DNA from: an uncultured Candidatus Saccharibacteria bacterium
GTDB lineage: Bacteria > Patescibacteriota > Minisyncoccia > UBA6257 > Colwellbacteraceae
Length of the DNA stretch: 64,000 bases
NCBI GenBank assembly: GCA_964643135.1
Contig: CAZXPC010000004.1
Coordinates: 4,716 to 68,715, forward strand
Direction of reading: 5' to 3'
The position numbers and the translations under genes are program-made. The notes beneath the pieces are model-generated. The model ran no database searches and was not told the DNA's origin. It was given only the letters and a program-made list of their open reading frames with translations. Below are positions 2,181-62,192 of the stretch, one piece after another. How positions within the stretch are numbered: position 1 is the first letter of the stretch; every line of letters begins with the position of its first letter.

Positions 2181-2313
2181 GAGTTAATTATGGACTAATT
2201 GTAGCATGGGTTATATAATCAAATCACTTTCGGGATTATCCCGCGGCCCCGCTAGAAATAGCGGGGAATTCTCTTTATTTTTCCTTCATCTGCGAAGTTG
2301 TAGCATTGAAGTT

Positions 2314-2706
2314 ATGACTCATATAAAAGATTTTGATGGATGGAATGAGAATAAAAAGGAAATTCACAATCGCGTTGATGGGCCATTTTTCCATACTCGT
2401 GAAATATGGTGGTGCTCACTTGGTCTAAATATAGGCTTTGAGCAGGATGGATCAAGCGATGACTATTATCGCCCCGTACTCATATTGAAAGGCTTGGGAA
2501 GATGGACCTGTCTAGCTGTTCCACTGACTACTTCTGCAAGAGATCATAAGTTGCGCCCCTCCATCGGTGTTGTCGAAGGCAAGGAGGATCGTGCTCTTAT
2601 CTCGCAAATCAGAGTTATAGATGCGAAGCGTTTAGTAAGGAAAGTAGGCTATCTTGAAAGCAATATCTTTGAAATCATAAGAAAAACCGTCAAGGATATG
2701 ATCTGA
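2314..2706 (+). CDS. MazF/PemK-family endoribonuclease toxin with N-terminal extension
   Basis: REIWWCSLGLNIGFEQDG...RPVLILKG...QIRVIDAKRL aligns with B. subtilis EndoA/YdcE (GDVYFADLSPVVGSEQGG..RPVLVIQ..QIRTIDKQRL). Start taken at the internal Met at 2314; the ORF track extends to 2206 with no stop. Confidence 0.6.
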   Translation: MTHIKDFDGWNENKKEIHNRVDGPFFHTREIWWCSLGLNIGFEQDGSSDDYYRPVLILKGLGRWTCLAVPLTTSARDHKLRPSIGVVEGKEDRALISQIRVIDAKRLVRKVGYLESNIFEIIRKTVKDMI

Positions 2707-3998: not shown

Positions 3999-4385
3999 AT
4001 GGATAAAGACACAAAGCAGAAGTTTGGTTACAAAGGCGGTTACGGTTTGGAGTTAATATTAGATCTAAAGGGCTGTGATCTTTCAGACTTAACCCGCGAA
4101 AAGTTGAAGAGATTTTTTGTGGAATTATGCGATCGGATCAAGATGGTAAGGCATGGCGAACCTCTGTATTGGGAGGATACTTCCGATATTCCTCATCTCC
4201 GAGGCATTTCCGGATTTCAATTTATCGAAACAAGCAATGTTGTATGCCATCCAATCTCCATGCAAAATGCGGTATATCTCAACATATTCTCGTGTAAGGA
4301 ATTTGATACTGAAGATGCAGTAAAATACTGCGTCGAATTCTGGGGAGCAAAATCCGAGGTTCACACTGTTGTACCTCGCACATAA
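3999..4385 (+). CDS. S-adenosylmethionine decarboxylase-fold (SpeH-like, pyruvoyl-dependent) protein, possibly divergent
   Basis: GLELILDLKGCD and GISGFQFIETSNVVCHP...NIFSCK align with SpeH GRHLVAEFYECD and [20 protein letters not shown]...DLFTCG, including the E-S/T|S processing site; the H..WPE motif is altered. Confidence 0.55.
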   Translation: MDKDTKQKFGYKGGYGLELILDLKGCDLSDLTREKLKRFFVELCDRIKMVRHGEPLYWEDTSDIPHLRGISGFQFIETSNVVCHPISMQNAVYLNIFSCKEFDTEDAVKYCVEFWGAKSEVHTVVPRT

Positions 4386-4390
4386 AAACC

Positions 4391-4927
4391 ATGTCTTCTG
4401 ATAAGCAGGCGGCAAAGGAAACTATTCTGGAAACAGATAGTTTAGCGGTAACCTCTAGTAAATCGAAAGATCGCGGCTTAGGTGTTTTTGCAAAACATAG
4501 TTTCCGAGCTGGAGAGTTATTATTTGAAGTTAGAGGCCCAATAATGGCAAGAGGAACTAAATATTCATTATCTGTTGGCTTTGGCCAACACATTGAACCA
4601 AAAACAGAAGACGGCAAAGATGATTTCGGACATTACATGAACCACTCTTGTGATCCGAATGCATTTGTAAAAGTCGTAGCCTCATCTAAAACTCCCTACA
4701 TAGAGATCAGAGCGCGCAGGAATATCAAAAAGGGTGAAGAGTTAACATTTGATTACGCCTCATCAGAATATGAGGTAACAATAAATGGAGTTTCTTGCAG
4801 ATGCGACACAAAGCTGTGTAGGGGTAAAATTCATGGATTCAAAGATCTACCTAAAGATATTTTCGATCAGTATAAAAAAGAGGGAATAATTCCCGACCAC
4901 CTAACAAGTATTTCCAGTAATAATTAA
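4391..4927 (+). CDS. SET-domain protein (putative SAM-dependent lysine methyltransferase)
   Basis: NHSCDPN motif, ELTFDY motif and post-SET cysteine cluster CRCDTKLCRG; 5-bp gap to the upstream SpeH-like gene. Confidence 0.8.
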   Translation: MSSDKQAAKETILETDSLAVTSSKSKDRGLGVFAKHSFRAGELLFEVRGPIMARGTKYSLSVGFGQHIEPKTEDGKDDFGHYMNHSCDPNAFVKVVASSKTPYIEIRARRNIKKGEELTFDYASSEYEVTINGVSCRCDTKLCRGKIHGFKDLPKDIFDQYKKEGIIPDHLTSISSNN

Positions 4928-12339: not shown

Positions 12340-12513
12340 GACCTGCTTCTCCCCGCCTCTCCCGCTCCCCGGCCCCTCTCCCTCAGGAACCAGGATAATC
12401 CCGCCTCCAAACTCTCTTCCGCCCCTCGGAACCAGGATATTTTTTCTACTGAAAAAATTCCCTACCGCTCGGCTACCCGCCTCCGCAGTTTCCTCAGAGC
12501 GAAACCGAGTTCT
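12340..12513. repeat. Dispersed intergenic repeat, module I (tandem partial copy plus a full 114-nt copy at 12400-12513)
   Basis: 12400-12513 is nearly identical to the reverse complement of 47757-47870 and related to 47572-47635; a shorter direct copy of the ggaaccaggata core lies at 12370-12399. Confidence 0.8.
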
Positions 12514-12569
12514 CGGCTCTGTAGAGGGAGCTTAGAGTAGTAGGAAGAACCTCCAAACTACTCTGAGGA

Positions 12570-12697
12570 GCCTCTCGGAGACGCGTAGGCGTCGAGAAGA
12601 AGAAAATCTAGCAAGATTTATCTGTGGTGACGAAGGGTAGTTTGGGGTTCTGACACGGGAGAGTGGCAAGAGGGATGATATAGCTGGGGGCGCAGAT
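12570..12697. repeat. Dispersed intergenic repeat, module IV
   Basis: Shares gcgtaggcg.cgag...gaagaaaat...gatgatatagctgggggcgc with 52250-52364; the 20-mer gatgatatagctgggggcgc is identical at 12674-12693 and 52345-52364. Confidence 0.65.
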
Positions 12698-14526
12698 CAG
12701 GCTAGCGGCAGAGAGAAGCTGAAGGTTGAGCCTTGGCCTTCAGCGGACTCCACGTAGATCGTGCCGTTCATTTTCTCGATGATTTGCTTCACGATAAAGA
12801 GGCCGAGGCCGGTGCCGCTGATATTGGCTGTGTCTTTGGTCGCGACTCGGTAGAATTTGGTGAAAAGCTTAGCCTGAGCATCCTTCGAGATTCCTAAGCC
12901 GTGATCTTTGATATGAGTCACGAGATTCTTTTCGGTCGTTTCGTGGCTAATCTCAATCGAACCATTACCGACCGTGTACTTAATAGCGTTGCCGATTAAA
13001 TTGACGAGCACTTCGCGGACGCGGCCATTGTCGGCCATGACAGCCGGGGTGGGCGTAAGCGGTGTGTAGACCATCTTGATCCCCTTCTCATCGGCCAAAG
13101 GTTTCAGCTCGCTCAATGTTTCATTTACAACCGGGACAATATCGGTTTTAACCACATCCACTTTGATTTTCCCGGCATCTGACCGGGCCACTTCGAGCAA
13201 ATCTTCAACAAGCCTGATGAGGCGCGCGTTGGCATTCAAAACTTTGGTGATGAATCCTTTGACTTGGTCGGAGACCGGTCCGGCCAGGCCGTCGTTGATG
13301 ATAGACAAGTAGCCCTTAATCGCCGCAACTGGAGTTTTAAGCTCGTGCGCAGCGATGAAAACGAATTCGTCTTTCAAGGCCTGCAATTGCTTGAGGCCCT
13401 CGGTCATTTTGTTGAAGGCGAGCCCCAAGTCTTCGATTTCGTCCCCGGTTTTGATAGTAACCGGCTCATCGAACTTGCCTTTAGCAACGGCTTCGGTGCC
13501 GGCTTCGAGCTGCTGGATCGGACCGACAATTTTATTGGTCAGTAAAACGCTTAAAAGCAAAACGAGAACAAAAACGATCAAAGAAAATATTATGATCTGC
13601 ACTTCCAGCGCAACCAACACTGAATCGGCGTCGGCGCTCGGCCATTCGGCCACTATGCCCCAACCCAAGCCGGTGATATTTGTGCCGGCGGCGATAACCG
13701 GGAGGCCGTTCAAGCTGACATATCTTTGAGTGCGCGCCGTCGAGAGGGATCCCCGGCCGGAGAGAATGTCTTGCGTGATCGGCGAACTACTCAAATTGTC
13801 CGGCAAGTCGCCGGCCCTCAGGCCTTTGCCGATCACGCGGCCGCTTTGATCAAAAATATAAACATAGCCTGTTTTGCCGAGGGCGGCGCTCTGCGCAATT
13901 CGATTCACGGCGGTTAAATTCAATTCAGCGCTCAAAATAGAAATGGCGCAATTGGCTGCGTTCCGGACCGGAGCCGCAATCGTGACCGCGGGGCCGCTGG
14001 CGTTAAAATAGACCGGCCCGATGTAGTCATAATTTTGATTGCCGGCTTCGCTCTTGCAGTTATCCGCACCTGCAAGCGCGGCGGAAACTTTTTTAAAACT
14101 TTCTAAGTTGCTTTCATCGCGCAACTCGGGAGTTTGGCCCAACTTTTGATAGGCCCGGCTGACTCGCGAGATTTCGCGGCCGGTATTAATGTCTATAAAA
14201 GAGGCTTCCTCGATGGCAGAATTGGCATCGATAAGTTGATTCAAGAGAATGCCTCTGGTTTCAGCGGTGAATTCTTTGTCCAGGTCGCTCACGGTCACGA
14301 CGAGTTCGAGATTGCGTTTGGTCTCATCGATGAACCGGTTCACCTCCTGTATTTTCTCGCTGATTAAGTTACTTTCGATCGAGGCGACGCTCTCGTTGTG
14401 CGACTGAGTCACAAAATAAAGGGCGAACAAGCCAGCCAAGATAACGGGCAAGACGCCTATGCCGAGCATCATTAAGAGGATTTTTTTGTGCAACCGGCCG
14501 CCTAACTTGAAAGACTTTTTATCCAT
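12697..14526 (-). CDS. Sensor histidine kinase with periplasmic sensor domain and HAMP
   Basis: 609 aa; N-terminal TM, large extracytoplasmic domain, second TM, HAMP (NKIVGPIQQLEAGTEAVAKGKFD), HisKA (AAHELKTPVAAIKGY), HATPase_c (GTGLGLFIVKQIIEKMNGTIYVES). Confidence 0.85.
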   Translation of the reverse strand: MDKKSFKLGGRLHKKILLMMLGIGVLPVILAGLFALYFVTQSHNESVASIESNLISEKIQEVNRFIDETKRNLELVVTVSDLDKEFTAETRGILLNQLIDANSAIEEASFIDINTGREISRVSRAYQKLGQTPELRDESNLESFKKVSAALAGADNCKSEAGNQNYDYIGPVYFNASGPAVTIAAPVRNAANCAISILSAELNLTAVNRIAQSAALGKTGYVYIFDQSGRVIGKGLRAGDLPDNLSSSPITQDILSGRGSLSTARTQRYVSLNGLPVIAAGTNITGLGWGIVAEWPSADADSVLVALEVQIIIFSLIVFVLVLLLSVLLTNKIVGPIQQLEAGTEAVAKGKFDEPVTIKTGDEIEDLGLAFNKMTEGLKQLQALKDEFVFIAAHELKTPVAAIKGYLSIINDGLAGPVSDQVKGFITKVLNANARLIRLVEDLLEVARSDAGKIKVDVVKTDIVPVVNETLSELKPLADEKGIKMVYTPLTPTPAVMADNGRVREVLVNLIGNAIKYTVGNGSIEISHETTEKNLVTHIKDHGLGISKDAQAKLFTKFYRVATKDTANISGTGLGLFIVKQIIEKMNGTIYVESAEGQGSTFSFSLPLA

Positions 14527-35493: not shown

Positions 35494-35862
35494 TTATTTG
35501 GTGCCGAGCTTTTTGGTTGAAGATATAAAATTGTTTAATTTAACTCCTAGGTTTTGCATCTCAAGATACAATTGCGAATAAGCTGGATCTTTTACGAAGC
35601 CACGGTCTTTGAGTGTCTCGAGCCAGTGCATAGCCTCGATCAATGAACCACGAGCATTGTAATTGAATTTATTGCGATCCAGATAATGAAAACGGCCGAA
35701 TCCTTCGGCTATGTTAGCCCCGACAGAATCGACGGATCTTATAAATTGATCACCTATTATGCTTTTCGTTTTATAGTCAAACACTGTATAGATCTTCCAG
35801 CTTTTTGCCGAAACACCGCAGGCTAGCTGATAAACCTCTAAATCTTTTAAATCCATAATCAT
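35494..35862 (-). CDS. Four-helix-bundle protein (TIGR02436; 23S rRNA intervening-sequence protein family)
   Basis: DLEVYQLA...DQFIRSVDSVGANIAEGFGRFHY...GSLIEAMHWLE matches the family consensus. Confidence 0.75.
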   Translation of the reverse strand: MIMDLKDLEVYQLACGVSAKSWKIYTVFDYKTKSIIGDQFIRSVDSVGANIAEGFGRFHYLDRNKFNYNARGSLIEAMHWLETLKDRGFVKDPAYSQLYLEMQNLGVKLNNFISSTKKLGTK

Positions 35863-37136: not shown

Positions 37137-38432
37137 TTAGATGTTGTGGATCATGCAACCAAGGATCGTCCCAGCACCCGGGTCGGCAGAGAAGGTAGCT
37201 GTTAAGGTGTCTGCAGTTGGTACAACCTTGTTCAAGCTGACAGAGTTAGCTGAGGCGTCTAGTGAACAGGCCACTACTGCCGTTGACCTTAAACCAGTCA
37301 TAGTGAACGCGTTTGAAGTGGCGCCACCGCCGTAAGTCGTGCTGCGGATCATTGCAAACTGGTTCTGAATCAATGAAGTGGTAGCTGGAGGGGAAGTCGG
37401 GGTAAGAACAAGGGCTCCTGTACCGTACTGGATTGTTGTTTTAGATGTAGTGTTAGATGAACCAAGAACGATTGTCTGAACAGCTGCGCCAGTACCGATC
37501 TGGATACCGTGGGCAGTTGCGCCGTTACCGATCAAGATAGCGCCAGCTGCAGTACCACCTTCTAAGGTAAGCGTTGAGCTTGCGTGAGCAGAACCAACGG
37601 CAACAAGGTCAGCGCCGGTTGCGTCAGCGCCAACGTTGATAGTTGTTGTTTTTGCAACAGCATCGTTACCAACGTTCAAGTTTCCTGTACCAGCGTTGAT
37701 GGTGGTAGCAGAAGTTGAATTGGTTGAGCCGAGAACAACAGTGTTTACGGCTGCGCCAGTACCGATCTGGATACCGTGGGCAGTTGCGCCGTTACCGATC
37801 AAGATAGCGCCAGCTGCAGTACCACCTTCTAAGGTAAGCGTTGAGCTTGCGTGAGCAGAACCAACGGCAACAAGGTCAGCGCCGGTTGCGTCAGCGCCAA
37901 CGTTGATAGTTGTTGTTTTTGCAACAGCATCGTTACCAACGTTCAAGTTTCCTGTACCAGCGTTGATGGTGGTAGCAGAAGTTGAATTGGTTGAGCCGAG
38001 AACAACAGTGTTTACGGCTGCGCCTGAACCAATGCTTATTGTTTTTGCAGTAGCACCGTTACCGATCGAGATACCGCCAGTGTTTGCGGCACCGATTGAA
38101 ATGGTTGATGATGTTGCGTTGTCGAACAATGTGTTAGCGCCCCCGGTGACTGCGCCGTTGTAGGTAGTGGCACCGGTTGCGGTAGCGTTACCAAGCGTTA
38201 ATGTGCCCGTGGTCAAAGCGCCGCCCATCAAGATGTTCGATGCGGCTGCGGCTTCGAGGGTTAAGGCTCCGCTGCTGGTTGCTGTTAATGCGCCAAAAGT
38301 CAAAGTTGCTGAAGCTCCGTTGACTCCGACTACTCCGACCATCAAGGACAGTACGCCCAAGATGAGTCCTAATTTTGTTAATTTGTTTTTAATCATTTTT
38401 GTAAAATTTGTAATTGTTTTTTGGGGAATCAA
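37137..38432 (-). CDS. Secreted Ala/Thr/Gly-rich repeat protein (adhesin-like) containing a perfect tandem duplication
   Basis: Signal peptide; an 89-aa unit (…GSTNSTSATTINAGTGNLNVGNDAVAKTTTINVGADATGADLVAVGSAHASSTLTLEGGTAAGAILIGNGATAHGIQIGTGAAV…) occurs twice identically, then a third diverged copy. Confidence 0.7.
   Translation of the reverse strand: MIPQKTITNFTKMIKNKLTKLGLILGVLSLMVGVVGVNGASATLTFGALTATSSGALTLEAAAASNILMGGALTTGTLTLGNATATGATTYNGAVTGGANTLFDNATSSTISIGAANTGGISIGNGATAKTISIGSGAAVNTVVLGSTNSTSATTINAGTGNLNVGNDAVAKTTTINVGADATGADLVAVGSAHASSTLTLEGGTAAGAILIGNGATAHGIQIGTGAAVNTVVLGSTNSTSATTINAGTGNLNVGNDAVAKTTTINVGADATGADLVAVGSAHASSTLTLEGGTAAGAILIGNGATAHGIQIGTGAAVQTIVLGSSNTTSKTTIQYGTGALVLTPTSPPATTSLIQNQFAMIRSTTYGGGATSNAFTMTGLRSTAVVACSLDASANSVSLNKVVPTADTLTATFSADPGAGTILGCMIHNI
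37483..38016. repeat. Perfect 267-bp direct tandem duplication (2 copies) inside the adhesin-like gene
   Basis: Identical antisense ORFs at 37636 and 37903 are offset by exactly 267 nt; the sequence is nucleotide-identical across both units. Confidence 0.85.
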
Positions 38433-38684
38433 ATTCTTATATCTTCGATTTTTGTTTTTTGGAGTAAACCGACCTTAAGATGTTTTACTCTAAAAAAACA
38501 AATGTTTAATCGAGTCTAAAAATTTGAGGTTTATAATTTTATACTTTTCCTTCTTATGATTATCACGAGCTTCTAGACGGCTCACGAGAATCTGCGACCT
38601 TTCCATAAACCGCATTTTGCGGATTGCAATTATTATAACATAGCAAGGCTTCGGGTGCTGAAAGATCAAACTGTGGATATCTTC

Positions 38685-38820
38685 CCGCCTCCGAAATCCG
38701 ATCTACCCTTCAGGGCACAGCATAAATCTCTGCTGAGATTTTGCTTTCCGCTCACCCGCCTACGCGGGCTTCCGCGAATCCCTTCAGAATAGATTCGGAT
38801 TTCTCGGCTATGCTAAGGAG
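38685..38820. repeat. Dispersed intergenic repeat, module II (hairpin/TIR element) containing module III
   Basis: Termini cccgcctccgaaatccgatctaccc ... agattcggatttctcggctatgctaaggag are mutually inverted and homologous to the termini of 52031-52223; interior 38731-38787 is homologous to 47668-47727. Confidence 0.75.
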
Positions 38821-38889
38821 TGTGTTGTGAAAATTGCAATCGACGCAAAGGGTCACAATATAAAACGTCTCTTCGGGTAGAAAATTACA

Positions 38890-43941: not shown

Positions 43942-44370
43942 TTTGTAAATTAATTCGTAAAATCTTTTTGTATTATTTGGATGATACCTTGCAAGTTACC
44001 ATCATCGACCAGCTGCTCTACACATGTGAGGTTTGTGCCTTTCCCACCTCGGCCCCTCAGCCCACTTGTGAGGTGAGGGGCTAAGGCGAGGTATAAAGCG
44101 GCGAGCTGATGTTTGCAAAGATCCTAGTAACAATTTCGGACGGGGCAGATCTTAAAAAAGAAATGACCTCGAGTGAGGCGATGACGTGAACGAAACAGGT
44201 ACGAAGGATTCACCTCGGAAACGAGGAGACGCCTTGCGCCTGTAAAAATATTTGCTTAGGTAGGCCTCACTTCCTGCCTAAATCAATATTTACTTAATGC
44301 TAGCACGTGAGATCACATGCTTGCAATAGGGTAAAACGCGGCGTCAACCGCAACGTTACATGGCAGGTTC

Positions 44371-44392
44371 GACAGCTTGCGCGCCAACTCGG
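44371..44392. repeat. Dispersed intergenic repeat, module V (22-mer shared with 52146-52167)
   Basis: gacagcttgcgcgccaactcgg identical at both sites, within a 460-nt structured non-coding spacer. Confidence 0.6.
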
Positions 44393-44403
44393 ACAAGCTA
44401 AGT

Positions 44404-47571: not shown

Positions 47572-47870
47572 CCCGCCTCCGAATCTGCCTCTGCCCCTCG
47601 GAACCACAGGTGATCTCTACTGAAACTCGCCCTCCCTCATCCCACTCCGGGAAACACAATAATTTCTTGCTAGAAATTTTGTTTTTGCTCACCCGTCTTC
47701 ACGGGCTTGCGCAGATTCCCTTCATGGAACAAGGTCGGGCTAGTCTACATAGCCAAAGAACTCGGTTTCGCTCTGAGGAAACTGCGGAGGCGGGTAGCCG
47801 AGCGGTAGGGAATTTTTTCAGTAGAAAAAATATCCTGGTTCCGAGGGGCGGAAGCGAGTTCGGAGGCGGG
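47572..47870. repeat. MITE-like element: 37-nt terminal inverted repeats (module I) flanking an internal module III
   Basis: 47572-47608 (cccgcctccgaatctgcctctgcccctcggaacca) vs reverse complement of 47834-47870 (cccgcctccgaactcgcttccgcccctcggaaccagg); 47757-47870 is about 95% identical to reverse complement of 12400-12513; interior 47668-47727 homologous to 38731-38787. Confidence 0.8.
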
Positions 47871-49959: not shown

Positions 49960-50041
49960 GGGCGGATGGTGGAACTGGCATACACCTGCGTCTCAGAAGC
50001 GCAGTCCGCAAGGATTGAGGGTTCAAATCCCTCTCCGCCCA
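49960..50041 (+). tRNA. tRNA-Leu (anticodon CAG), class II with long variable arm
   Basis: Manual fold: acceptor GGGCGGA/TCCGCCC; U8; 3-bp D-stem GTG/CAC with 11-nt D-loop GAACTGGCATA (compare E. coli tRNA-Leu GAAUUGGUAGA); anticodon stem TGCGT/GCGCA with loop CTCAGAA (U33, anticodon CAG); 13-nt variable arm; T-arm GAGGG-TTCAAAT-CCCTC; discriminator A73; CCA not encoded. Confidence 0.85.
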
Positions 50042-50086
50042 CAATAGTTATAAAAATAATTAGAAAAATAATATTAATTAATAGGT

Positions 50087-52030: not shown

Positions 52031-52223
52031 TCCGCCTTCGAAATCCGAATCTACCTTTCGCTTAGCTCTCTCCTCGTCGAGGTGCTTCCAAGCTGTCTCG
52101 GGAGACCGCTCACGGCCGCTTGGCCTAGGGGTTTAGTCTCCCTGCGACAGCTTGCGCGCCAACTCGGGGGAGCTAGAGCTCAGGATAGATTTCGGATTTC
52201 TCTCGGCTATGTAGAGCTAAGAG
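52031..52223. repeat. Dispersed intergenic repeat, module II (hairpin/TIR element) containing module V
   Basis: Termini tccgccttcgaaatccgaatctacc ... gatagatttcggatttctctcggctatgtagagctaagag are mutually inverted and homologous to 38685-38820; contains the 22-mer at 52146-52167 shared with 44371-44392. Confidence 0.75.
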
Positions 52224-52249
52224 CCGTAAACCATAGCCCCGCAGGGAAC

Positions 52250-52364
52250 ATCGCGCAGGAGCGTAGGCGACGAGCGCGAAGAAAATTTTGAGCACAAAAT
52301 TATTCTGTTTCCCGAGGAGGCTGTGGTTGGAGGCTCGGGGTGGAGATGATATAGCTGGGGGCGC
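52250..52364. repeat. Dispersed intergenic repeat, module IV
   Basis: Homologous to 12570-12697 including the identical 20-mer gatgatatagctgggggcgc. Confidence 0.65.
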
Positions 52365-52431
52365 GGAGCTCATCACCCGAAAAAGAAAAAGGCCCGCTGA
52401 GAGATGTGAATCTATCGTCGGGTTTTGTCGT

Positions 52432-57334: not shown

Positions 57335-57476
57335 ACAAACCCTCCCCTCAGGAACCGGGATAAATCTCTTCCAGCGAGAGATTTTCCCTCAGCGCTCAGC
57401 CAGTGGTCGCCGTAATATAAAACGGCGCACCTAGCTCCACTGGCTTCCGCGATGTTCCTTCAGAAAGGGTTTGTTC
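57335..57476. repeat. Dispersed intergenic repeat (related to module I core ggaacc.ggata) with inverted termini, in the ileS 5' leader
   Basis: cacaaaccctcccctcaggaaccgggataaatc ... gaaagggtttgttcg; termini acaaaccct / agggtttgt inverted; several internal hairpins (gccagtgg...ccactggc). Confidence 0.55.
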
Positions 57477-57490
57477 GTTATGGAAACCAC

Positions 57491-61425: not shown

Positions 61426-61497
61426 CCACGCCGAAGATTAAAGCCATTTTATAAAAATTGATTTTGAATCGGAGCGGGGGTAGGCTGAAATTAGCAT

Positions 61498-62136
61498 ATG
61501 AAGGCGGTTATATTCGATATTGATGGTACGCTCACGCCGGAAATCTCGTGGCTATTTTTGACCGAAGCTCTGGGCGCGTCTAAAAGCGAGCATTTAGAGA
61601 TATTTAACAGCATGAAAGCCGGTGAAATTGACCTGCCCCTGGCAACCAGCCAGTTACTTCGACTATGGCAAGCGAGCGGACAGGCTAATTTGGGAAAACT
61701 TAGAGAAATTTTTGACAAAGTAAGTCTGCGTGAAGGAGCGCTCGAAATCGTGAATTACCTGCGAAGCGAAAATTATAAACTCTGCCTCATCTCCGGTTCG
61801 ATGGGCTTATACGCCGAGACGATTGCTAAAAAGTTAGGGGTTGAAGCGTATTTCAGCAACACCGAGCTGATTTTTGATAAGGCCGGCCAATTAATCAATT
61901 TTAAATATCAGCCGGACCAGGGCGCGATCAAACTAAAACAGCTTATGGAATTTTGCGCGCGCGAAAATATAACGCTCAAGGATTGCGCGGTGATCGGCGA
62001 CAGCGGAAACGATTTGGAAATTTTTAAAGCAACCGGACACGGCATTATTTTGAAGGGCGGCACACCGGAGCCCACCCTCGGGGACGCTGCTTGGAAAAAA
62101 ATAGAGGATTTGGGGGAAATTAAAGCCATTTTATAA
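61498..62136 (+). CDS. HAD-superfamily hydrolase (phosphoserine-phosphatase-like)
   Basis: Motif I FDIDGTLT, motif II ISGS, C-terminal GDSGNDLE. Confidence 0.75.
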   Translation: MKAVIFDIDGTLTPEISWLFLTEALGASKSEHLEIFNSMKAGEIDLPLATSQLLRLWQASGQANLGKLREIFDKVSLREGALEIVNYLRSENYKLCLISGSMGLYAETIAKKLGVEAYFSNTELIFDKAGQLINFKYQPDQGAIKLKQLMEFCARENITLKDCAVIGDSGNDLEIFKATGHGIILKGGTPEPTLGDAAWKKIEDLGEIKAIL

Positions 62137-62192
62137 AAATTGATTTTGGTTCTGCCCGGTAGTACGCTGAAATTAGGATTCGAGGGTTTGAC

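Follow-up and report, generated by a model that had tools for sequence, protein, structure and literature searches.

ERIC (IRU) sequences of Enterobacteria and Correia (NEMIS) elements of Neisseria are imperfect palindromes of about 100-160 bp, which are co-transcribed with genes and act as RNA hairpins. The Correia elements carry 26-bp terminal inverted repeats and a TA duplication. The BOX elements of Streptococcus pneumoniae are built from modules in the order boxA-boxB(n)-boxC, in which the outer modules pair as a stem and the interior modules vary. For the BIMEs, roles in nucleoid organisation and in the binding of gyrase or IHF have been proposed. REPINs are doublets of REP sequences that form hairpins and are mobilised by RAYT transposases (PMC3116915).

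In this study two hairpins, element 1 (38685-38820) and element 2 (52031-52223), were followed up in the window, the whole 64-kb stretch of DNA that was analysed. The window has a G+C content of 48.5% and carries ordinary housekeeping and cell-surface genes, and the nearest named relatives of its RNase J are Candidatus Colwellbacteria at 66-77% identity, with Paceibacterota also among them. Both hairpins are probably members of a lineage-specific, non-coding, interspersed family of structured repeats, analogous to REPIN, BIME, ERIC and BOX, in a Colwellbacteria-like Patescibacteria genome. The family itself is new, as a further example of interspersed repeat elements already described in other bacteria; it is no novel type of system. 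A literature search on the candidate phyla radiation together with REP, MITE, REPIN and RAYT returned no description of interspersed repeats there.

Like REP, BIME and REPIN sequences of Proteobacteria, the units described here are extragenic and multi-copy, pair up head-to-head as inverted doublets with a hairpin fold in mRNA or single-stranded DNA, and lie in mosaic clusters with alternating orientations and linker motifs; no target-site duplication is seen and the fold is strand-specific. Unlike REP, which is a simple palindrome of 20-40 nt, the unit here is branched, about 110-150 nt long and built around a three-way junction, and a GTAG stands next to the basal stem in only three of 16 units (B, A2 and unit E1 of the related contig L004). 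It also differs from REPINs in its host, one of the Patescibacteria, and in that neither the window nor the called genes of the related contigs L004-L009 yielded a RAYT or Y1 transposase. With the ERIC and Correia elements the units share a similar size, a long imperfect hairpin, intergenic placement in either orientation and variants with internal insertions or replacements, and by analogy a hairpin at the RNA level would be expected to influence mRNA fate. The sequences are unrelated, however, no duplication of the Correia kind is seen, and the interior is a conserved branched core with covariation instead of a simple stem. The modular build, with the same arms around different interiors in elements 1 and 2, recalls BOX, but there is no sequence similarity to BOX, the core has a three-way junction, and the units stand in head-to-head pairs and not in a linear A-B-C order. 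Integron attC sites bound gene cassettes beside an integron integrase gene and have conserved R/L boxes; the units here have housekeeping genes as neighbours (RNase J, TrpRS, IleRS, SecG), and no integrase is among the ORFs of the window.

The first-pass annotation had likened the two elements to a MITE or BIME or to a large structured RNA. The core of this proposal is supported: a hairpin-forming repeat family, MITE- or BIME-like or a structured RNA, with modular shuffling. Terminal inverted repeats of the MITE type are there, with the leader and tail outside them, but neither a target-site duplication nor a matching transposase was found in the window, and the repeated unit, of about 110-190 nt over the family, is not large. 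Pfam domains of transposase, integrase or reverse transcriptase are missing from all 49 ORFs of the window, which is part of the genome. A link to a diversity-generating retroelement was considered and dropped: the Avd-like gene at 35494-35862 on the minus strand has no reverse transcriptase nearby. This gene is a stand-alone gene of the 23S_rRNA_IVP/Avd-like four-helix-bundle type with a homologue at the syntenic place in the relative L007. Near the left end of the window, an ORF at 2206-2706 (+) carries a PemK/MazF-type toxin domain.

Two hairpins with shared ends and different interiors

Local alignment of the two intergenic regions holding elements 1 and 2 gave two collinear blocks, one for each element end. 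The first (38685-38711 against 52032-52059) reads CCGCCT[C/T]CGAAATCCG[-/A]ATCTACC[C/T]TTC, with 25 matches, 2 mismatches and 1 gap (score 39), and the second (38784-38812 against 52180-52211) reads TCAG[A/G]ATAGA[-/T]TTCGGATT[--/TC]TCTCGGCTATG, with 28 matches, 1 mismatch and 3 gap columns (score 41). None of 300 dinucleotide-preserving shuffles reached either score, the shuffle maxima being 29 for the top and 23 for the second block, and the common termini proposed in the first-pass annotation are thereby borne out. Since the termini align, the leader and tail recur on two more units and seven canonical units are present in the window, neither of the two outcomes named there as refuting, termini that cannot be aligned and a lack of further copies, was observed.

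The long stem that had been predicted for each element was recovered as well. Element 1 folds at -50.8 kcal/mol on the plus strand (z -3.9) and at -66.3 kcal/mol on the minus strand (z -6.4), and element 2 at -92.9 kcal/mol (+, z -4.8) and -91.1 kcal/mol (-, z -4.9); for both elements and both strands the fold beats each of 200 shuffles. The arms are paired in these folds over about 17-19 bp with one bulge. They lie internal to the leader and tail and are thus not strictly terminal. Read from the folds, the arms of the two elements differ by a matched A/U insertion on both sides.

The natural polarity of the arms is that of the minus strand. What had been taken as the start (ccgcctcc) is therefore the 3' tail GGAGGCGG, and the supposed end (ggctatg..taaggag) is the 5' leader, so the end sequences hold and their assignment is reversed. 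Read in this direction, element 1 is a complete canonical unit (unit B, 38683-38825, minus strand) with the leader CTCCTTAGCATAGCC, the stems P0 (GCC/GGC) and P1, a GA/GA loop and the tail GGAGGCGGG. Its P1 corresponds to the arms that were named module II (38685-38711 and 38784-38812), and its core spans 38706-38789. Folded as a unit, B reaches -64.5 kcal/mol on the minus strand and -47.5 kcal/mol on the plus strand. The covariance model gives it 85.3 bits (E 1e-19), a score to be read with the membership of this sequence in the training set.

Element 2 (E1, 52031-52223) is a chimera. At 52031-52059 and 52180-52223 it carries homologues of the arms, leader and tail of unit B, assigned to the minus strand by the arms, which fold at -26.9 kcal/mol there against -21.6 kcal/mol on the plus strand. 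Its interior (52060-52183) is a 124-nt rod-like structure that folds better on the plus strand (-66.4 kcal/mol with 5 G-U pairs against -58.9 kcal/mol with 1 G-U pair on the minus strand), and it is not detected by the core covariance model. Because arms and interior favour opposite strands, element 2 has, within a leader, basal stem and tail like those of element 1, a foreign rod of opposite polarity in place of the canonical core that element 1 contains. The claims of differing interiors and of modular shuffling were thus right: the interior called module III is found in element 1 (38731-38786, 81% identical to 47668-47724) and that called module V in element 2 (52145-52175, 90% identical to 44370-44400), with arms of the element 1 type set around an interior of the other polarity.

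Minus-strand genes flank element 1 on both sides, and the strong intrinsic terminator at 38917-38888 ends 68 nt before it. Only 4 nt separate the RNase J stop codon from element 2, and no terminator lies between the two. The check for target-site duplications that the first-pass annotation had suggested gave no sign of one, as the flanks of element 1 (..atcttc / tgtgtt..) and element 2 (..agtcat / ccgtaa..) share no direct repeat. The TAAGGAG at the end of element 1 was rejected as a Shine-Dalgarno sequence, because all that follows it is an ORF of 17 codons, and this ORF is missing at element 2. Adjoining element 1 is a 431-aa ORF (37137-38432) without Pfam match, a repeat-built protein of surface type, within which two tandem 267-nt copies (37416-37949, 91% identical) and a partial third (37950-38080) are found.

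A branched unit, its copies and its relatives

The canonical unit, of about 110-150 nt, consists of a 5' leader, a long basal stem (P0/P1), a GA/GA internal loop, the stem P2 of 4-6 bp, a three-way junction with the hairpins P3 and P4, and a 3' tail. P3 has an internal loop (CGCGGAAG..UGAGCG), and P4 has a bulged A and usually an AGCA loop. The element family that had been named module II is indeed multi-copy, but module II itself is no independent element: in the minus-strand reading it is the leader (CTCTTAGC..TACATAGCCGAGA), basal stem and tail of one subfamily, placed around the conserved core that had been called module III. The leader and tail of element 1 are also found around unit A1 (-) and unit D1 (+), where the sequence called module I forms the basal stem, and homology to the module II arms can be recognised in several further basal stems. 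Between the basal stems of units B and A2 four compensatory double changes that keep the pairing were read from the folds.

In the model-fitted alignment 84.5% of the proposed-pair cells are paired, compared with 64.8% after shuffling, and 0 of 500 shuffles reached the observed value; 23 of 28 pairs changed on both sides, while controls with slid partners were only 37-62% paired. An independent MAFFT alignment gave 82.5% standard pairs against 66.5% when shuffled, with both-side changes in 19 of 30 pairs. These covariation counts are biased toward the structure, since it was derived from one member. In the P4 helix 10 of 11 pairs covary, and it is because of the effect size and this helix that the conservation of the fold through compensatory changes is convincing despite the bias. 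The core sequence, the loops (AGCA; GUAG/GAAG) and the GA loops are kept between species that share only 79-86% identity in RNase J. A hammerhead was dismissed by eye, since the junction leaves hardly any conserved residue unpaired and CUGAUGA/GAAA is absent, and so was a K-turn, since the 3-nt bulge is missing from the GA loops. An Rfam scan of the window gave no family at the gathering threshold, and at E <= 10 the sole match was a tRNA-Leu. This tRNA-Leu(CAG), at 49960-50042, scored 48.7 bits in the Rfam E-value scan, for a gathering score of 29, and ARAGORN calls it too; that the gathering-threshold scan of the window did not list it reflects a filter quirk of the software.

The core strand gives the better fold in all 16 units, by 5-25 kcal/mol with RNA parameters. 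Summed over these units, 77 G-U pairs are formed on the core strand and 21 on the other, and among the modelled pairs there are 46 GU/UG cells against 16 AC/CA cells. With DNA parameters the advantage of the core strand is only 2-4 kcal/mol, and each strand, taken as single-stranded DNA, has a significant fold (z -2.7 to -9.8). A folded single strand, RNA or DNA, is implied behind the bias, and RNA fits better. The plus-strand GC skew is positive in every 8-kb bin (0.02-0.10) of the window (1-64000), and most genes from 9.5 to 44 kb lie on the minus strand despite it. In the single units B and F the folding strand is the minus strand.

Self-comparison of the window showed six intergenic regions, A to F, that share pieces in varied combinations: region A at 12340-12660, region B as element 1, region C as a fragment, region D at 47572-47870, region E at 52031-52345 and region F at 57335-57480. 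The census is seven canonical units, element 2 and three fragments. Region A begins with a truncated unit fragment (12340-12399, minus, ..TATCCTGGTTCCTGAGGGA..; 12378-12399 is a weak nhmmer match) that abuts unit A1 (12400-12515, core 12421-12500, minus), which combines a leader and tail like those of element 1 with module I arms; unit A2 (12545-12650, core 12561-12638, plus, 50.9 bits) follows, with a basal stem homologous to the module II arms. A 31-nt fragment at 44370-44400 (+), directly downstream of the stop codon of a DeoR-HTH gene, matches the right half of the element 2 interior in 28 of 31 bases. Region D opens 3 nt after the SecG stop codon with a solo tail-plus-arm fragment (CCCGCCTCCGAATCTGCC..GGAACCA, 47572-47626, minus), followed by unit D (47630-47745, core 47643-47726, minus, 85.0 bits) and unit D1 (47757-47870, core 47770-47849, plus). 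Unit E (52226-52345, core 52239-52319, plus, 71.6 bits, E 4.5e-16) stands head-to-head with element 2 and has the basal stem AACCAUAGCC/GGCUGUGGUU. Unit F (57335-57480, core 57344-57464, minus), which was outside the training set, scores 35.7 bits (E 1.5e-6); it has a long insertion in P3, lacks a leader and lies between an intrinsic terminator and the promoter region of IleRS.

Units A1 and D1 (12400-12525 and 47744-47870) are inverted copies 96-98% identical and 35 kb apart, whereas the other copies appear to have diverged much further. Their near-identity points to recent transposition or gene conversion, and the two copies are a possible substrate for inversion of the 35-kb segment. All 16 units are intergenic, the one at 4786-4864 of L004 overlapping the start of an uncharacterised called gene (4264..4800). 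Adjacent units stand head-to-head in five of five pairs, with a linker of about 35-55 nt between the 5' ends, and the orientation of units relative to neighbouring genes is mixed. Co-transcription with the adjacent genes is probable for the units of the RNase J 3' UTR, the SecG-SBP spacer and the histidine kinase-response regulator (HK-RR) spacer.

Three other sets of repeats or conserved blocks were noted in the window. A 20-mer, GATGATATAGCTGGGGGCGC, is shared by 12677-12696 and 52348-52367, about 20-30 nt downstream of the plus-strand units A2 and E; the copy in region A abuts, on the upstream side, the histidine-kinase stop codon (12697-12699). A 462-nt spacer (43942-44403) upstream of a 1273-aa PG_binding surface-protein gene has blocks 75-96% conserved at the same position in L006 (2696-2776) and L007 (2767-3086), and it may be a 5' UTR or a regulatory RNA unrelated to the repeat family. 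A 68-nt direct repeat (61437-61504 and 62119-62186, 82% identical) precedes two consecutive plus-strand genes, which encode a HAD hydrolase and an ORF without Pfam match, and looks like a duplicated upstream region.

A first nhmmer profile was built from nine units and was followed by the covariance model R1. In L004 (GCA_040384205.1), a contig syntenic to the window, three units outside the training set (4785-4866, 1490-1566 and 1363-1446) matched the first profile with E values of 1e-15 to 1e-11. With R1, seven canonical units were found in the 64 kb of the window, seven in the 17 kb of L004 (RNase J 86% identical), and one each in L008 and L009 (RNase J 79% in both), the unit of L009 being untrained (E 5e-5). 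The count was zero in L013 (RNase J 88%), L005 (83%), L006 and L007 (77%), also when the searches of these four were repeated with filters off, and zero in L010-L012 (about 60%, 59-61%), the only three relatives recovered by an RNase J-anchored metagenome search. Weak matches in L010 and L012 (E 4.1) were noise-like on inspection. The two conserved core 19-20-mers had no match in IMG/VR, so there is no sign of a phage origin.

At syntenic sites, units are gained or lost between close relatives. Downstream of RNase J the window has the chimera and a unit, L004 two units and a fragment, and L008 and L009 one F-type unit in place of an E-type one; L005 has nothing and L013 another gene at this site. 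The iPGM-holin spacer holds a head-to-head pair of units in L004 and 10 nt in the window, the filled and empty sites being too diverged to define junctions. The L004 unit at 4786, upstream of a tRNA-Leu, has no counterpart in the window. For site A the histidine-kinase homologues, at most 65% identical, are too distant for a comparison with relatives. Exact look-ups of the proteins on either side of element 1 and of the 100%-identical histidine kinase gave no record. Truncated and nested fragments are present, and the truncated ones abut complete units. Two independent Logan assemblies of the same organism stop at the identical base within the 5' arm of element 2, which suggests a repeat-induced branch in the assembly graph.

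Competing explanations and what the family means

That the units are in the first place selected cis-acting RNA elements, serving mRNA 3'-end protection, processing by RNase III, J or Y, or insulation of cistrons, with repeat-like spread as a secondary matter, is an unlikely alternative, which overlaps with the repeat-family reading and is compatible with it. It draws on the size of the strand asymmetry with RNA parameters (10-20 kcal/mol, against the small effect with DNA parameters), on the roughly 3 to 1 excess of G-U over A-C, on the loops and GA internal loops kept across species, and on the at least one sense-oriented unit in each transcribed spacer (HK-RR, SecG-SBP, RNase J 3' UTR), as well as on the start of element 2 so close behind RNase J. 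Conservation of the core, loops and GA loops at this distance is more than would be expected of a neutrally decaying, purely selfish repeat and favours a selected RNA function. Yet the orientation is mixed, the lone SecG-SBP unit of L004 is antisense, units B and F lie between strong intrinsic terminators and the next promoter region and may be barely transcribed, and the same sites are free of units in close relatives. A step further, and improbable in our estimation, would be stand-alone sRNA genes, multi-copy, trans-acting and protein-binding with tandem G-A motifs, with a promoter in the leader and a bidirectional promoter shared by head-to-head pairs. The conserved leader 15-25 nt upstream of the basal stem, the defined tail, the strong structural covariation and a layout that places both 5' ends on one common linker all suit such genes, and by eye unit B has a possible TTGCAA-N18-TAGCAT promoter. 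In a consensus promoter scan, however, none of the units had a sigma-70-like site, two full promoters would not fit into the linker, no terminator follows the units, unit F has no leader at all, and truncated and nested copies are typical of repeats and not of genes.

The strand bias speaks against sites that act at the DNA level, as cruciforms or protein-binding sites for nucleoid organisation, gyrase or IHF, with the hairpin a mere reflection of double-stranded symmetry. Significant folding of both strands as single-stranded DNA and the BIME-like mosaic of alternating orientations would fit them, but a purely symmetric function is not expected to produce any bias, while 16 of 16 units favour the core strand and G-U exceeds A-C by 46 to 16; we regard this explanation as very unlikely. 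Chance similarity or ordinary intrinsic terminators would agree with the intergenic position of both elements near gene ends, and can scarcely be credited. The terminus similarity is out of reach of the shuffles, the terminator scan calls the true terminator at 38917-38888 (-) and neither element, no T-run (U-tract) follows either hairpin, and covariance-model matches place the family in other genomes, so this reading is refuted. Against the repeat family itself count the lack of a visible target-site duplication at either element, the lack of a transposase, integrase or reverse transcriptase among the 49 ORFs, and the conservation of core and loops. A further point against it is that the window has just two copies of the exact module II arms and that none was recovered elsewhere: the exact 3' arm pattern had a single match among GTDB representative genomes, by chance, in an Acidobacteriota coding region, and the 5' arm pattern none in JGI metagenomes.

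Under the favoured interpretation as interspersed repeats, the units would multiply and swap parts within the genome by transposition, by gene conversion between copies, or by both, and would spread by way of an intermediate, RNA or single-stranded DNA, formed by the folding of one specific strand. A unit that comes to lie inside a transcript, with the SecG-SBP spacer, the HK-RR spacer and the 3' UTR of RNase J as examples, would form a very stable RNA hairpin, which would probably alter the stability or processing of the mRNA 3' end as a side effect. A bolder and rather doubtful version takes the units as copies of a new, strand-specific RNA domain, a three-way junction that a long stem with tandem G-A internal loops closes, on which purifying selection would act in all Colwellbacteria species. 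Its role would be that of a signal for protein binding or processing, or else of the folded intermediate by which a mobile element spreads. The mobile variant, equally tentative, would involve an as yet unknown enzyme and leave no target-site duplication, in genomes otherwise with almost no mobile DNA.

The genomes of Patescibacteria (the candidate phyla radiation) are small and streamlined, yet these repeats make up about 2% of the 64-kb window and about 5% of the 17-kb stretch of L004, and they separate genes that are adjacent in sister genomes. Their coincidence with assembly breaks matters for the quality of metagenome-assembled genomes. The covariance model is a direct tool for surveying the repeat family across genomes of the candidate phyla radiation, and because of its conserved branched fold with RNA-type covariation the family is well suited to testing whether such repeats are purely selfish or serve as recruited RNA signals.
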